Below are positions 3,695 to 37,237 of a DNA stretch of 42,060 nt, piece by piece. The stretch lies in assembly GCA_964639415.1 (NCBI GenBank), contig CAZXDD010000002.1, forward strand, positions 1-42,060, given 5' to 3'. The notes below the pieces were generated by a model. It was given only the letters and a program-made list of their open reading frames with translations, had not been told where the DNA came from and made no database searches. The translations under genes were made by a program, and so were the position numbers. Position 1 is the stretch's first letter. Every line of letters begins with the position of its first letter. Source of the DNA: an uncultured Armatimonadia bacterium. Its GTDB lineage: Bacteria > Armatimonadota > Zipacnadia > Zipacnadales > JABUFB01.

Positions 3695-4819
3695 ATGGAG
3701 ATCATCAGTTCAGGCACTGTGTACTCCGGCGCCGACGACCCGCGGCGCCAAAGCTGCGCCTTCCCGGGGGTCTGTGTGCTCCCGGACGGGCGGTGGCTCT
3801 GCAGCTTCCGAGCCGCACCCACCAAGACCGGAACCCGCGGGCAGCACACGCCCCTCACCTGGTCCGATGACCTCGGCGCCACCTGGCACGAGCCGCTGGA
3901 GCCCTTCGCGCCCCCACCCGTCGACGGCAAGCCGGGCCTGTTCCGCGCCGGCTATCTCACGCCCCTGGGCGGCGACGAGGTCCTGGCCACGCTCTACTGG
4001 GTCGACCACTCCGATCCCGACAAGCCCTTCTTCAACCAGGCCACCGAGGGACTGCTGGATTCCCGCCTGATGCTGTCGCGCTCCTGCGACCGTGGCGAGA
4101 CGTGGACGGCCCCGGAGCCCATCGATACCTCTCCCTTCCACATGCCCACCCCCATCACCGGCCCGACGCTACTGCTGCCCGATGGCCAATGGGCCTGCCA
4201 GTTCGAGCTGAACAAGGCGTACGACGACGCCTCACAGTGGCGGCACCATTCGGTCCTGCTGTTCTCAGCCGACGGCGGTAGGACATGGCCGCGCCACACC
4301 CACAGCAGCGGCGACCCGGCCAACCGCGTCTTCTACTGGGACCAGCGGCCCAACGTGCTTTCCGACGGGCGGATACTCGATCTGTTCTGGACCTACGACA
4401 CCCACGAGGCGCTATACCTGAACATCCACGCCAGGGAGTCCGTGGACAAAGGACGCACGTGGTCGGGGATGTGGGATACAGGAGTGCCGGGCCAGCCGGC
4501 CCAGCCGGTACCGCTGCGCCACGGAGCCATCGCCATGGTCTACGTGGACCGGACAGGGGCGCCGGAGATCAAGCTTCGAGTCAGCCAGGACGGCGGCCGC
4601 ACCTGGCCGCGCGAGACCGAGGGCGTGATCGCCCGCCCCAAGCTGGATGTCCAGTCCACCACCAAGGACACGATGCAGGACACCTGGGCGGAGATGGAGC
4701 AGTTCTCCCTGGGGCTGCCGGCCGCCACGGCCCTGGAGGACGGCACACTGTTGGTTGTGTACTACCAGGGTCCCCACATGGACCGCACGCAGGTCATGTG
4801 GGCCCGTGTGGCGGTGTGA
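3695..4819 (+). CDS. BNR/Asp-box repeat protein, sialidase (exo-alpha-sialidase)-like beta-propeller
   Basis: Track ORF 3620..4819 trimmed to ATG 3695, with GAAGGAG 7 nt upstream. Five Asp-box motifs (S-x-D-x-G-x-T-W) are present: SDDLGATW, SCDRGETW, SADGGRTW, SVDKGRTW, SQDGGRTW. No obvious signal peptide. Confidence 0.85.
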   Translation: MEIISSGTVYSGADDPRRQSCAFPGVCVLPDGRWLCSFRAAPTKTGTRGQHTPLTWSDDLGATWHEPLEPFAPPPVDGKPGLFRAGYLTPLGGDEVLATLYWVDHSDPDKPFFNQATEGLLDSRLMLSRSCDRGETWTAPEPIDTSPFHMPTPITGPTLLLPDGQWACQFELNKAYDDASQWRHHSVLLFSADGGRTWPRHTHSSGDPANRVFYWDQRPNVLSDGRILDLFWTYDTHEALYLNIHARESVDKGRTWSGMWDTGVPGQPAQPVPLRHGAIAMVYVDRTGAPEIKLRVSQDGGRTWPRETEGVIARPKLDVQSTTKDTMQDTWAEMEQFSLGLPAATALEDGTLLVVYYQGPHMDRTQVMWARVAV

Positions 4820-32345: not shown

Positions 32346-33026
32346 CTACGAGCCGTCACCCCAGCGCCACCACAGCGTCGATCCGGAACGCGACTTCCCC
32401 GTCCGCCCACCATCGAGACCCTCCGTGTCGGCCTCCTCGGAGCCCTTCGACGCCCCGGCCCGGTTCTCGAGTATCACGGCCGCCCCTACCCGTGGCCCCT
32501 CGCCGCTGGCCACATCACGCTCCGGCCCAATACCGTCGGGATCTCTCTCGACGAAGCCGATGCTCCCGTCGAGAAAGACGCAGTATGTCCAGCCATGATG
32601 ACGCGGTACCGGCCGCCCCTGTGGGTCGGCGTCATAGAACAACATGCACGCATCCGGCTCGGGATGCTCGTCGATCCGCGTGCCACCGTACCGCGAGTTC
32701 AGGGCGTACGAGATGCTGTCTTCGCTCTTGTCTTCAGGGCACCTGAGAGCGTCCTCGTGGCCGAGGTAGTCGCCCGCCAGCAGCCGGGGCCAGGAGTGAG
32801 AAGCCGGGAGCGTCTCGTCGTAGTCGGCGGCGTAGGTTCGGGCCGCCATCTTGATCGCCAGCAGATTGCCCACGCACAGGTCCTGCCGATAGCCCGGACG
32901 CGTCCGGAACAGAGGCATCACAATCCAGCCCCCCACCACGATGACCATCCCGAGCACCAGCAGGTCTCGTCGCACATCCTGCCACAGTGATGTCCGACGA
33001 GACCGGCGCTGTCTCACCACGACCAT
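32346..33026 (-). CDS. Membrane-anchored H-X9-DG (DUF1559-type, prepilin-like) protein, paralogue 5 of the sigma-linked cluster
   Basis: ATG 33026 has a GAGGTGA RBS. A basic head and TM helix (RRDLLVLGMVIVVGGWIVMPLF) are followed by CVGNLLAIKMAARTYAADYDETLP, RCPEDK, ISYALN and RHHGWTYCVFLDGS (H-X9-DG). It has an acidic, Gly-rich C-terminal tail and no canonical G/FTLIE prepilin motif. Confidence 0.7.
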   Translation of the reverse strand: MVVVRQRRSRRTSLWQDVRRDLLVLGMVIVVGGWIVMPLFRTRPGYRQDLCVGNLLAIKMAARTYAADYDETLPASHSWPRLLAGDYLGHEDALRCPEDKSEDSISYALNSRYGGTRIDEHPEPDACMLFYDADPQGRPVPRHHGWTYCVFLDGSIGFVERDPDGIGPERDVASGEGPRVGAAVILENRAGASKGSEEADTEGLDGGRTGKSRSGSTLWWRWGDGS

Positions 33027-33030
33027 GCCT

Positions 33031-33931
33031 TCACCTCACACCTGCTATCGGCCGCTGCCTGGCCGGCCGCCACTCCGTCATCTCCGGCAGTCCTGCGACC
33101 GCCCTCACCTGCCCGCCCATGTAGGCACACACACCACGTCCATCGTTGCGCGGGTCCGTCGACCTCATCGTCTCCGCGTCCCCTGTGCACCGGCGGCGGC
33201 AAGCGAACCGCCGTCCCCGGAGATGGCCCCTCGATGGGCACCCGACCCCTTTCGGGCCAGGCCTCGCCGGGGATCTGCTTGGCTCTCCCTCGCAGACGCG
33301 CCCGGTGGGCGCCGGGCGGCTTGTGACGGAGCCTCGCGAGATTTGCACGTTCCTGTTATTGTACAGGTGGCTGCGGCCGACGTCCACCGCCTCGGACTTG
33401 GCGGCGCGCCACCCACTCGGGCTCGGCGGAGGCACCGAGAGTGTCGGTGACCTTCACGCGGCACGCGCCCGGAAGACGTCTCATCGCAGACCGCGGCCCA
33501 CAGCTCCACGAGCAAGACAAGACTGACCCGCTGCAAGATCGCCTTCTCAGCCCACATCACAGGCGGCCGGTCCCGCCGCCCCCACAGATGCACACGTACC
33601 GCGTAGGCTGTCTTGAGCTTATCAGAAACATGATACCCATTATTGGGCCGATTCACACCACTTGACGGCTCAACCTTCTCGAAAGAGTCGTTGAGCCACA
33701 TCAATTAGCCGTGCGACAGGGAGTGCCTGCGGTCGCGCCCTCGCGGCCGCGCCTGTGAGGCGTCCTGCGCGTGACGATGAGCTCCACATCGTCCGGCCAC
33801 GGACCGACTTGTGGCGGTCGATCGGTGCGGCCTCCTGTATGAACCACGGCAGCTATGGCGATCTGCTTGAGGTTGCACATGCAACTTGACTGTCTCGCCT
33901 GCTCACGGCTTCCACCGAACACGAGAGCCAT
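33031..33931 (-). pseudogene. Decayed H-X9-DG paralogue (paralogue 4), split into out-of-frame fragments and interrupted
   Basis: The N-terminal fragment is 33701..33931 (LVFGGSREQARQSSCMCNLKQIAIAAVV). The C-terminal fragment lies in the frame of ORF 33031..33435 (GCPSRGH...TDPRNDGRGVCAYMGGQVRAV), and there the H and D of H-X9-DG are replaced. No continuous ORF and no convincing TM helix remain. Confidence 0.45.
33440..33704 (-). mobile_element. Possible remnant of an IS200/IS605-type (Y1 HUH) transposase N-terminus with adjacent hairpin
   Basis: The segment 33590-33704 is visibly AT-richer than its surroundings. Its translation is MWLNDSFEKVEPSSGVNRPNNGYHVSDKLKTAYAVRVHLWGRRDRPPVMWAEKAILQRV. 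The string Y-x-x-R-x-H-L-W..R-x-R-x-x-V-M resembles the conserved N-terminal strand of TnpA(Y1). The hairpin GGCTCAAC-N15-GTTGAGCC lies at 33667-33697. The similarity is short and unverified. Confidence 0.25.
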
Positions 33932-34208: not shown

Positions 34209-34915
34209 TCATGCGGCCGCTTTCAGTCTGGCCCGGCGCCTAACCGCCCTGATCCCCGCCCACAGCGGCGGTATCCACAGCCAGCAGTAGACGGCCATGG
34301 TGCGGACGACCCGCAGGAGCGCTCTACCCGCACCTTCCGCGGTGGTGACGATTGTGTCCCACACCCCCGGGGGAACGCGGGGCTCGGGGACTGCCGGAGC
34401 CCCATCAAGCTTCGGGACGCCCGGGAACCACTTGACATGACCGTCGAGGTAGGCGCAGTGACAGCCGCCATTGTGCCGGGCCACCGGTCCCCCGGCGCCG
34501 TCGGCGTCGACGAAGAGCACCCGTTCCGCGGCCCGGGGGTACCGCCGATTCTCCGCCCGCTGTAGCGTGAGGCCATCGCGTACGAGACCGCGGCGCCACT
34601 GTGGTCCTTCTCACACCCGTACAGCGCCCTGTCACGCACGTACGGCAGTAGCTGCCGCGGCCACCGCGCGGCGTCAGGCAGCCTCCCATCGTTGTCCTCG
34701 GCGTACATCAGCGCCGCGAGCACAATCTGCTTGATGTTCGCAAAACAGCGTGGGTTGAGTTGAGGATGAGGCTTGGCCCATACGGGAAACAGCAGGGCGC
34801 CCGCCAGCATCGAGAAGAGAAGCGCGGCCGCCATCTCGATGAGACCGGCTTTGAGCGCCGCCGCTGCGTCCGCGGCCACCGGTGTTCGCTCCCCGGGCTC
34901 ACCGAATTGTCTCAT
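34209..34915 (-). pseudogene. H-X9-DG paralogue 3, closest copy of the anti-sigma ectodomain, split by a 1-nt frameshift
   Basis: The N-terminal part lies in ORF 34223..34915 (KAGLIEMAAALLFSMLAGALLFPVWAK...NDGRLPDAARWPRQL...AVSYAMASRYSGRRIGGTP). The C-terminal part lies in ORF 34209..34520 (ERVLFVDADGAGGPVARHNGGCHCAYLDGHVKWFPGVP...). The frames switch in the run CCCGGGGG at 34532-34539. An AGGAGG RBS lies 10 nt upstream of ATG 34915. Confidence 0.65.
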
Positions 34916-34933: not shown

Positions 34934-35488
34934 CTACCCGCTTCTGGGCCCCGCTGCGTTCCCGGCCACTCCCCTGGTGGTCTTCACATGCCCGTCCATG
35001 TAGGCGCAGTTGATGCGCCCTCTGTGGCGCGGAGCCGGACACCCCTGCGCGTCGGCATCGTAGAACAGGACGCGAGCATATGGGTCGGAATAGTCGCTCA
35101 GACGCGTTCCGCTATAGCGCGGGTCCATGGCGTAGGATATGGGAGAGCGAGACTTGTCCGCCGGACACTTGAGCATGTCCTGTGACACCCCGTAGGCGGA
35201 GAGCTGCTGCGGCCAGCTCCGGCTGTCGGGGAGCACGCCGCCGTTGGCCGCGGCATAGGCCACAGCGGCGCCGACTATCACCTTCAGGTGCTCCCGACAC
35301 TCCTGTTCCGCGCCCGCGCTCCCGGCGCGGGCACGGATCGGTGCCGAGGCGGTTGCGATGATGCCCCCAAGAACCACCAGGACTGCCCCGACAGCGATCC
35401 CGATCACAAGCACAGCGGTCCCGCATCCCCTGGCTTTGACGTCCTTCCGGGCACCTGCTCGCTGCGGCCGTTGTGGCGTAGCCATCAC
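34934..35488 (-). CDS. Membrane-anchored H-X9-DG (DUF1559-type) protein, paralogue 2
   Basis: The start is GTG 35488 or ATG 35485; AGGAGG lies 7 or 10 nt upstream respectively. A basic head and TM helix (GTAVLVIGIAVGAVLVVLGGIIA) are followed by ECREHLKVIVGAAVAYAAANGGVLP, KCPADK, ISYAMDPRYSG and RVLFYDADAQGCPAPRHRGRINCAYMDGHVK (H-X9-DG). Confidence 0.75.
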   Translation of the reverse strand: MMATPQRPQRAGARKDVKARGCGTAVLVIGIAVGAVLVVLGGIIATASAPIRARAGSAGAEQECREHLKVIVGAAVAYAAANGGVLPDSRSWPQQLSAYGVSQDMLKCPADKSRSPISYAMDPRYSGTRLSDYSDPYARVLFYDADAQGCPAPRHRGRINCAYMDGHVKTTRGVAGNAAGPRSG

Positions 35489-35642: not shown

Positions 35643-36437
35643 CTAATCAGGGGATATCGAGTCGCCCGCGGGGCCGATGCCCCGGGGCACGCCATTCAGC
35701 CATTTCACGTGACCGTCGAGGAAGGCGCAGTTGGTCCCGCCGTTGTGGCGGGCTATCGGCCGCCCGCTCCTGTCCACATCGAGGAACAGGACGCGCTCGG
35801 CCCTGTCCGGGAAGGCCAGGGGGTCTTCGCGGCCATAGGTCCGGTCCATGCCATAGGAGACGTCCGCGCCGCCGCCATCGGCCGGGCACCGGTACAGCAT
35901 CCGGTTCTTGACGAAGGGCTCCAACTGCCCGGGCCAGCGGGCGGCGTCCGGCAGCCTGTCGCCGTTCTCAGTGGCATAGATCAGCGCGGCGGTCACAATC
36001 TGCCTGAGATTCGACGCGCAACCGGCTTGCCTGGCCTTCTCACTGCTTCTGGCGAAGACGGGGAACAGGATAGCGCCGAGGACCACGACAACAAACAGCA
36101 GTATCAGGGCCTCCACAATGCTGAAGCGAAGCAGGGCGGTTCCACCGGGCCGGGCGATCACGGTCCCCAGAGGCAGTTGCCTCTGAGGTCTCTCGGGCGT
36201 GGGCATCGCGGCTATCTCTTCTTCGACACGGCCGGACAGATCCTTCCCCTGCGCCGAGGCGAGCGACGCCCGGCGAAACACCTCCCCGTCGGTCTTGCTC
36301 TGCCGCAGCCACTCACGACATCGGGCGCAGTCCTGCAGGTGGCGGCGCACAGCGGCCCGTTCCTGCCCACCGCATTCCCCATCCGCGTAGGCCGAGAGCA
36401 AGAGCAGCCACTCCTCGTCGTGGTGCAGGCGGCCCAT
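35643..36437 (-). CDS. Anti-sigma factor (zf-HC2) fused through a pilin-like transmembrane helix to an H-X9-DG (DUF1559-type) ectodomain
   Basis: Track ORF 35643..36521 trimmed to ATG 36437, which shares its A with the sigma-gene TGA (TGATG). The N-terminus (MGRLHHDEEWLLLLSAYADGEC...RRHLQDCARCREWL) is a zf-HC2 anti-sigma domain. Residues 104-140 are RFSIVEALILLFVVVVLGAILFPVFARSSEKARQAGC. The C-terminus has YRCPAD, VSYGMD and RVLFLDVDRSGRPIARHNGGTNCAFLDGHVKW. Confidence 0.8.
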   Translation of the reverse strand: MGRLHHDEEWLLLLSAYADGECGGQERAAVRRHLQDCARCREWLRQSKTDGEVFRRASLASAQGKDLSGRVEEEIAAMPTPERPQRQLPLGTVIARPGGTALLRFSIVEALILLFVVVVLGAILFPVFARSSEKARQAGCASNLRQIVTAALIYATENGDRLPDAARWPGQLEPFVKNRMLYRCPADGGGADVSYGMDRTYGREDPLAFPDRAERVLFLDVDRSGRPIARHNGGTNCAFLDGHVKWLNGVPRGIGPAGDSISPD

Positions 36438-36991
36438 CAGCGCCCTCCCCCCTCGGCCACAGCATCCGCCTCGTCCTCGGCCTGGAGGATTCCGCGCAAT
36501 GCCTGGCGTGCTCGGAAGCACCTTACCCGCACGGTGCCCGCGGCGACGCCGAGCATCGTGGCGATCTGCTCGTAGCTCATGTCCATCAAGTATCTCGCGG
36601 CCAGTATCTCGCGATCGTCCTGGCGCAGGCGGTCCAGTAGTGGGGTCAAGTCCGATGCCGCGGGGTCGACGGGTCCAGTAGACGGCTCGGGCACGGAGTC
36701 CGCCTCCAGAGACAGCGCCCGCGGGGGCCGGCGCGACAGATACCGGCGACAGCGGATGCGGAGGATGCCGTAGAGCCAGCCGCCGAACCTCTCCGGGTCC
36801 TGCAGGTTCCCCAGCCCTCGGTAGGCTTCAATGAAGCTCTCCTGAGCCACATCCAAAGCGGCCTCGTCCTCGCCCACAAGGTGCCGGGCAGCGGCGATGA
36901 TCCGCCCCTGGTGGCGGCGCACCAGCTCGGAGAAGGCGTGCTTGTCGCCCTGGAGTGTCCGACCCACCAGGTGGGCGTCGCCACCGGCCAC
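36437..36991 (-). CDS. ECF-type RNA polymerase sigma-70 family factor
   Basis: 184 aa; GTG start with GGAGG 7 nt upstream. Region 2 is FSELVRRHQGRIIAAARHLVGEDEAALDVAQESFIEAYRGL. The region 4 HTH is REILAARYLMDMSYEQIATMLGVAAGTVRVRCFRARQAL. Confidence 0.9.
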   Translation of the reverse strand: MAGGDAHLVGRTLQGDKHAFSELVRRHQGRIIAAARHLVGEDEAALDVAQESFIEAYRGLGNLQDPERFGGWLYGILRIRCRRYLSRRPPRALSLEADSVPEPSTGPVDPAASDLTPLLDRLRQDDREILAARYLMDMSYEQIATMLGVAAGTVRVRCFRARQALRGILQAEDEADAVAEGGGR

Positions 36992-37060
36992 GTTGTTGCC
37001 TCCGCGCGGGGATCGCGTCCTGGGTGTATGTGCCTTGCTCTGGGGACGATGTTACGCCAC

Positions 37061-37237
37061 AGGTGCGGCCGCAAAGGCCGCCTTCGCCGAGTGTGTCATC
37101 CTGAGAGCGCCCGCTCCCGCAGGAAGCAGCTCGAACAACCTCCTGGAATATCGCGACAGCCTTCGCCATCCCGCTGCGCGAGATGGACGCTCAGGATCAC
37201 ATCCTCACGGCGGGCCCGGCTTCTCGGCCGGGCCCGC
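37061..37237 (-). repeat. Dispersed ~175-bp element, copy 2 (opposite orientation to copy 1), between response-regulator stop and sigma-factor start
   Basis: The reverse complement of 37095-37200 matches 11294-11399 at 79/106 positions. The tail 37061-37094 matches 11400-11433 at 24/34 positions. The terminal 11-bp-stem hairpin GCGGGCCCGGC-TTCTCG-GCCGGGCCCGC at 37210-37237 corresponds to the copy-1 hairpin and may also terminate the response-regulator transcript. Confidence 0.7.

Follow-up and report, generated by a model that had tools for sequence, protein, structure and literature searches.

A pilin-like H-X9-DG module with a putatively uncleaved membrane helix is fused to an ECF-linked anti-sigma factor in an uncultured Armatimonadia bacterium

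The window analysed here is the whole stretch of 42,060 nucleotides at positions 1 to 42,060 of contig CAZXDD010000002.1, from an uncultured Armatimonadia bacterium. Its minus strand carries a gene for an ECF sigma factor of 184 amino acids (36437..36991), whose product matched Pfam Sigma70_r2 and Sigma70_r4_2 and scored 81 bits against TIGR02937 (sigma70-ECF; cut-off 42.9). It is followed on the same strand by a gene at 35643..36437, stop codon included, for a protein of 264 amino acids in which an anti-sigma factor is fused to a pilin-like H-X9-DG module. The two genes overlap by one base, the A at 36437 being common to the TGA stop of the sigma gene and the ATG start of the anti-sigma gene. 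Residues 8-41 of the product (36315..36416, minus strand) were recognized as a zf-HC2 zinc-binding anti-sigma domain by PF13490 (E 6e-11, 42.6 bits; cut-off 22.2). The zinc motif H-x3-C-x2-C is present, and the ligands C22, H33, C37 and C40 were invariant in the five fusions aligned. Foldseek matched this N-terminal domain to RsiW and RslA with a probability of 0.95-0.96.

The zinc-binding domain is joined to the rest of the protein by a predicted cytoplasmic linker (residues 61-103; 36129..36257, minus strand); its length and sequence differ among relatives. AlphaFold2 placed a helix at residues 62-77 and disorder from about residue 83 to the membrane (pLDDT <50 at 83-100). There follows a buried segment resembling a class III signal, the putative membrane anchor, which runs from R104(-1) to FPVFAR131 at 36045..36128 (minus strand) and was defined by hydropathy, pilin alignment and register statistics. 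Residues 104-131 read R-FSIVE-ALILLFVVVVLGAILFPVFAR, with R104 at position -1, F105 at +1, E109 at +5 and P126 at +22. By hydropathy, residues 98-133 are the sole hydrophobic segment of the protein. From residue 104 onward, R-FSIVE-ALILLFVVVVLGAILFPVFARSSEKARQ leads into a small head that closes with the H-X9-DG motif. The motif region (residues 229-248, H231...D241-G242-H243; 35694..35753, minus strand) scored 29.9 bits against TIGR04294 (NCBIfam H-X9-DG; cut-off 19, E 3e-7). H231, D241, G242 and H243 were invariant in 66 sequences, and so were C140 and C184, a pair whose conservation would fit an extracytoplasmic disulfide. With the DUF1559 model PF07596, which relatives pass, the protein scored 21.3 bits (gathering score 23.3). 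The first-pass annotation had thus given the gene and its coordinates correctly, down to the exact correspondence of residues 104-131 to 36045..36128, and its domain make-up as well.

Type IV pilins carry the class III signal at their extreme N-terminus behind a short leader, whereas in the anti-sigma fusion 103 residues, a folded zinc-binding domain among them, precede +1. The C-terminal 160 residues matched a profile of about 100 plain H-X9-DG proteins with an E value of 4e-37, and the profile of the fusion family matched the alpha1 helices of solved pilins (geopilin, PilA, PilE1 and the pseudopilin GspG) at E 7.5e-15 to 6e-6. Since the F105 column of the family profile was aligned to mature residue 1 of the solved pilins, E109 corresponds to Glu5 and P126 to Pro22. 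The proposal that the core of a class III signal is reproduced inside the anti-sigma factor was borne out by the profile score, the alignment to solved pilins, the Glu at +5 and the position of P126 on the conserved Pro22. The likeness of the helix to pilins is homology rather than chance.

The AlphaFold2 model of the whole protein (mean pLDDT 85) consists of a helical N-domain, the disordered linker, a helix of 51 residues and a small sheet. The helix is continuous over residues 107-157 (35967..36119, minus strand; pLDDT >94 from residue 111), corresponds to alpha1-N plus alpha1-C of pilins, and is packed at high confidence on four short strands, which gives the 'lollipop' outline of a pilin. 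When the whole model was searched against the PDB with Foldseek, the head domain gave no significant match; it resembled pilins weakly, the best pilin being 1ay2 (E 0.25, TM 0.38). We infer an N-in/C-out orientation of the helix from the lack of a signal peptide, the basic flank that precedes the helix, the topology of pilins and the invariant Cys pair of the head. An internal translation start that would yield a normal prepilin was considered and rejected, because the only nearby methionine, M78, still leaves Arg at -1.

Three H-X9-DG paralogues accompany the sigma and anti-sigma genes. Paralogue 1 (34934..35488, minus strand; TIGR04294 19.3 bits, hmmsearch E 4e-10) is a membrane-anchored H-X9-DG protein with a generic transmembrane helix, having no Gly-1, no Glu+5 and no FPVF, and it keeps the same position in L024 and L027. 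Paralogue 2 (34209..34915, minus strand) is the closest copy of the anti-sigma ectodomain and has an extra C-terminal transmembrane helix. Its pilin-type helix had been described as shortened, which proved incorrect: K-AGLIE-M...LLFPVW keeps the register of the anti-sigma helix, Lys occupying -1, Glu occupying +5 and FPVW following after 15 residues, and its orthologues likewise have Lys or Arg at -1, Glu+5 and 15 residues to FPV[WL]. In this assembly a frameshift around 34520..34540 splits the gene; an intact orthologue of 235 aa is found in L024 and as P0148, and the orthologue in L027 has a different frameshift. The C-terminal helix of paralogue 2 resembles the tail of long DUF4349-type anti-sigma fusions. 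Paralogue 3 (32346..33026, minus strand; hmmsearch E 7e-8), a membrane-anchored H-X9-DG-like protein whose motif is degraded to H...LDGS, is conserved in L024 and L027. The interval 33165..33931, which lies between paralogues 2 and 3, contains a short fragment of another H-X9-DG gene (...SREQARQSSCMCNLKQIAIAA..., 33701..33931) and also a stretch whose conserved copy in L024 is on the opposite strand (3696-4262).

The operon is syntenic in two close relatives, where the sigma gene, the anti-sigma gene and the three H-X9-DG paralogues are followed by DegT and AraC genes. About 130 bases 5' of the sigma start (36992..37120, minus strand) are nearly identical in L024, L025 and L027, the proteins being about 77% identical. 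This conserved stretch may hold a promoter or a dispersed element; no ECF-type -35/-10 pair could be assigned with confidence in 36992..37120 aligned with L024, L025 and L027. H-X9-DG heads also occur in other settings. Two in tandem, with no pilin helix, were seen in P0128, P0132, P0134, P0139, P0142, P0143, P0147 and P0009, preceded by an ordinary signal peptide or by other domains and in one case with a thioredoxin-like C-terminus. Two large adjacent ORFs at G000:C1:94-3210 (minus strand; 465 and 573 aa) end in H-X9-DG heads, and their long N-terminal regions are neither pilin-like nor anti-sigma-like.

Position -1 was examined among the H-X9-DG proteins of the same genome by searching all six-frame ORFs (8.06 Mb, 946 contigs) with the family profile. 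In 100 in-register ORFs this position was Gly in 90 and Ala in eight, Phe+1 was found in 99, and every one had Glu+5. The only two exceptions at -1 were the anti-sigma factor, with Arg, and paralogue 2 of the same operon, with Lys. The replacement of the cleavage-site Gly that had been noticed in the anti-sigma factor is therefore real, Arg104 standing where 98 of the 100 ORFs have Gly or Ala. Leader peptides of prepilins invariably end in Gly or Ala (PMC10191384). A prepilin peptidase gene, which the first-pass annotation had advised looking for, was found: a full-length PilD-type peptidase/methylase is encoded at C575:2081-2995, along with two short A24 peptidases on C23 and C926. Given this enzyme, the canonical H-X9-DG copies may plausibly be substrates, in contrast to the two copies of the operon, which are conspicuous as non-substrates. 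The PilD-type gene adjoins C575:3686-4591, a gene with a canonical GFTLIELLVV pilin start. The genome also encodes an RseP-type M50 site-2 protease (G000:C344, E 1e-54).

Relatives of the fusion were then collected. A word-indexed search recovered orthologues at 99% and 77% identity and two further fusions at about 40%; run with residues 1-140 it returned five proteins only, and the family was recovered by a full scan of cluster representatives. This profile scan, over 1.84 billion representatives, added about 30 full-length fusions, most of them 470-570 aa long with an added DUF4349 domain and a C-terminal transmembrane helix. Altogether the set comprised 42 distinct, non-redundant relatives. 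Among 300 reference genomes of the same phylum, which the named plain homologues point to as Armatimonadota, 12 contained the fusion, eight in the organism's own order and four in one other family, and in all 12 a homologous ECF sigma gene lay immediately upstream (E 1e-39 to 1e-56). A sigma gene also precedes the orthologue in L024, L025 and L027. It may be that the anti-sigma fusions go back to a single fusion event, or to a small number of them, in which the helix was retained in full. One 209-aa protein, P0006, is identical to the P0003-type anti-sigma factor as far as the middle of the pilin helix, beyond which it turns into an unrelated sequence of multi-pass membrane type; P0006 probably comes from a chimeric metagenome contig.

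Whether Gly is lost at -1 across sigma-linked copies, a comparison that had been proposed, received a divided answer: 33 of the 42 fusions have neither Gly nor Ala at this position, and nine keep Gly. None has Ala, 12 have Arg, which is also the residue in the 77-99% orthologues, and the rest have Thr, Ser, Trp, His and others. The site is perfect, G|F-[TR]-L-[IV]-E, in three relatives (P0129, P0133 and P0159), one of which, P0133 with KRG|FTLVE, scores above the Pfam N_methyl cut-off. In a maximum-likelihood tree of the ectodomain (80 rows, 136 columns) the backbone was unresolved, and Gly-1 members were placed beside sisters without Gly. This scatter indicates that Gly-1 is not consistently selected. 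The F-x-x-x-E register expected of homologous fusions was upheld for its Glu, which 37 of the 42 retain (88%), and failed for its Phe, present at +1 in 14; with Phe+1 kept in only a third of the relatives, the conserved register is x-x-x-x-E. Pro+22 was found in 42/42.

The retention of Glu+5 is selective. Column entropy in the fusions was 0.96 bit at +5, against 2.2-3.0 bit at +1 to +4 and at +6 to +7. Over 15 loci the Glu+5 codon was GAA in eight and GAG in seven, which reflects synonymous turnover. Glu+5 was found in 0/33 other N-terminal fusions of the same domain (with zinc-ribbon/DUF4190, SHOCT-like or M48 peptidase modules), in which the first half of alpha1-N is replaced; the difference from 37/42 gave a Fisher p of about 1e-13, not corrected for shared ancestry. 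Fusions of the H-X9-DG head to such modules, namely M48 peptidase (P0051, P0178, P0197), zinc-ribbon-DUF4190 (P0015, P0167, P0183, P0261) and SHOCT-like 'MRAxGxSDxEIR' (P0131, P0144, P0160, P0165, P0210), arose repeatedly and keep only the second half of the helix. In 20 of the 42 anti-sigma fusions Arg or Lys is found at +2, one helical turn before Glu+5, where canonical copies have Thr. One may speculate that this residue stands in for the positive charge of the free N-terminus of a mature pilin.

The Glu5 of a pilin forms a pair with the N-terminal amine of the subunit beside it (PMC10191384). Together with the retention of Glu+5 in the fusions, this suggests that the helix of the anti-sigma factor still makes a pilin-type contact within the membrane. 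The presence of Glu+5 in 37/42 anti-sigma fusions and in 0/33 others means that 'simply an anchor' probably says too little about the helix. Linkage of the fusion to pilus or type-II-secretion ATPases was also considered and rejected. No pilus or T2SS ATPase gene was found within 30 kb of the fusion in the five genomes checked; the nearest, in two of the five, were 32-33 kb away.

Taken as a whole, these observations are in our judgement best explained by a ZAS anti-sigma factor with an uncleaved, pilin-derived anchor and an H-X9-DG sensor, an explanation we hold to be likely; the architecture and the absence of prepilin cleavage, taken jointly, we accept with slightly greater assurance. The protein would belong with RsiW and RseA among the single-pass anti-sigma factors of the ZAS type, and would be translated together with the ECF sigma factor that it holds at the membrane. 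Its transmembrane segment and extracytoplasmic sensor would derive from an H-X9-DG (DUF1559) type-IV-pilin-like protein, the fusion join coinciding exactly with the former site of prepilin cleavage. Alpha1-N of the pilin would then serve as an uncleaved N-in/C-out signal-anchor, with the 103-residue sigma-binding domain in the cytoplasm at the former place of the short pilin leader and the H-X9-DG head outside as a putative sensor. With Arg at -1, prepilin peptidase is not expected to cut the anti-sigma factor. Sigma release would presumably start with the sensing of a signal by the outer domain and proceed through regulated proteolysis or a conformational change, by analogy with known systems, and the RseP-type site-2 protease could be part of the usual release route. 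The retention of Glu+5 and Pro+22 suggests that the helix does more than hold the protein in the membrane. Most likely it would still form a pilin-type contact there, the partner being, for instance, the amino terminus of a processed H-X9-DG pilin or some component of the pilus machinery.

The first-pass annotation had offered two readings of the buried helix, of which the first, a pilin helix co-opted as an uncleavable anchor, is favoured by Arg-1 here and in the closest orthologues and by a family in which Gly occurs in nine of 42 members and Ala in none. The second reading, in which prepilin peptidase cuts the buried site and frees the sigma-binding domain, so that activation is separate from site-1/site-2 proteolysis, found no support in this protein or family-wide. 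It can draw on the full-length PilD-type enzyme and the two short A24 peptidases of the genome, on a site topology that is right, at the cytoplasmic face, on the perfect motif of three relatives, P0133 among them with its N_methyl match, and on a frequency of Gly-1 (9/42) somewhat above that of a random residue. Prepilin processing is, however, constitutive to our knowledge, and so would make a poor switch. The Arg of this protein and its 77-99% orthologues is at odds with leaders that end in Gly or Ala (PMC10191384), neither residue is found in 33 of the 42 fusions, and the Gly members are scattered in the tree. With Gly-1 in so few relatives, prepilin-peptidase release does not appear to be the mechanism of the family; as a general account of activation we give it only a few chances in a hundred, and for this protein the sequence makes it very unlikely. 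Cleavage is conceivable in a minority, since nine relatives have Gly-1 and three of them (P0133, P0129, P0159) the perfect motif. The possibility that the fusion is an artefact, produced when assembly or a frameshift joined an anti-sigma gene to the prepilin gene next to it, or that it is a pseudogene in decay, can practically be dismissed. The metagenome assembly is indeed fragmented into 946 contigs, and the adjacent paralogue 2 is frameshifted, but the same open frame was found at 99% identity on five contigs and at 77% in two other assemblies. The fusion recurs in 12 reference genomes of the phylum, in each with the sigma gene upstream, and in about 30 of the 1.84 billion clusters; together with the syntenic operon in close relatives, this argues against such an origin.

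A more serious competitor, though still an unlikely one, holds that the helix is a generic membrane anchor, with Glu+5 and Pro+22 persisting by ancestry or for insertion or site-2 cleavage and with no pilin-type partner. A transmembrane helix is all that single-pass anti-sigma factors need, and residues that destabilise a helix are favoured by site-2 proteases. In five genomes the fusion showed no linkage to pilus machinery, and the anti-sigma fusions may share one or few origins. On the other hand, ancestry accords poorly with a Glu+5 that is kept at 88% through synonymous codon changes while neighbouring helix positions diverge freely. In the 33 fusions with other modules, for which this helix likewise serves as an anchor, the Glu was lost without exception, and paralogues 1 and 3 of the same operon do without it. 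At the other extreme, the anti-sigma factor might be a decoy pilin whose Glu+5 pairs with the amine of processed pilins or docks on the pilus/T2SS platform; we put this forward tentatively and rate it as improbable. If it were true, an ECF sigma factor would be governed by the membrane pilin pool, through either its size or its flux, and in the few relatives with a perfect Gly-Phe site the anti-sigma domain would be a pilin leader, freed one-for-one with pilin maturation.

The preferred reading, a ZAS anti-sigma factor with an uncleaved pilin-derived anchor and an H-X9-DG sensor, can be compared with known single-pass ZAS (class I) systems such as RsiW/SigW of Bacillus subtilis (PDB 5wuq), RslA/SigL of Mycobacterium tuberculosis (PDB 3hug) and RseA/RpoE. 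Like them, the fusion has an N-terminal anti-sigma domain, predicted to be cytoplasmic, with H-x3-C-x2-C, followed by what are predicted to be one transmembrane helix and an extracytoplasmic C-terminal domain. Its gene is translationally coupled to an ECF sigma gene, and an RseP-type protease is encoded in the genome. Unlike in those systems, the transmembrane helix and outer domain appear to be pilin-derived, with Glu+5 and Pro+22 kept. With the canonical H-X9-DG proteins, of which the genome has about 100 paralogues, the fusion shares the alpha1 sequence ...LFPVFAR.EKARQ..., the Cys pair and the H-X9-DG C-terminus. Those proteins begin with a leader of 5-15 residues whose last residue is Gly or Ala, and they are predicted substrates of prepilin peptidase, whereas in the fusion an anti-sigma domain of 103 residues occupies the place of the leader and Arg is at -1.

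A further parallel is the sensing of the pilin inventory through PilA and PilS in Pseudomonas aeruginosa, for which PMC6058289 cites Kilmury and Burrows 2016. By analogy, and purely as a hypothesis, the fusion could likewise be an inner-membrane transcriptional regulator that reads pilins through intramembrane helix-helix contacts. In the Pseudomonas system the conserved N-terminal segment of the pilin, including Glu5, reportedly matters. PilS is a multi-pass histidine kinase that is not pilin-derived, whereas the anti-sigma factor itself carries the pilin helix. Our literature search found no published link of DUF1559 or H-X9-DG proteins to anti-sigma factors; queries for an anti-sigma factor with a prepilin and ECF returned unrelated papers only, and there was one irrelevant match to H-X9-DG. 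We are likewise aware of no published description of a class I anti-sigma factor with what looks like a pilin-derived anchor and sensor.

The H-X9-DG/DUF1559 proteins (Pfam SBP_bac_10 plus N_methyl; TIGR04294) are heavily expanded in Planctomycetota and Armatimonadota, and the family is known only as an expanded, membrane-associated, uncharacterised group of pilin-like proteins (PMC8567305). It is among the most expanded and least understood families of these two phyla, and its conserved pairing with an ECF sigma factor gives it a regulatory context and a testable read-out. The fusion also illustrates how a class III signal may turn into a plain signal-anchor, with the join at the cleavage site and the Gly lost. 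The selective retention of Glu+5 in the anti-sigma fusions provides a lead on ECF-based monitoring of the pilin pool outside Pseudomonas.
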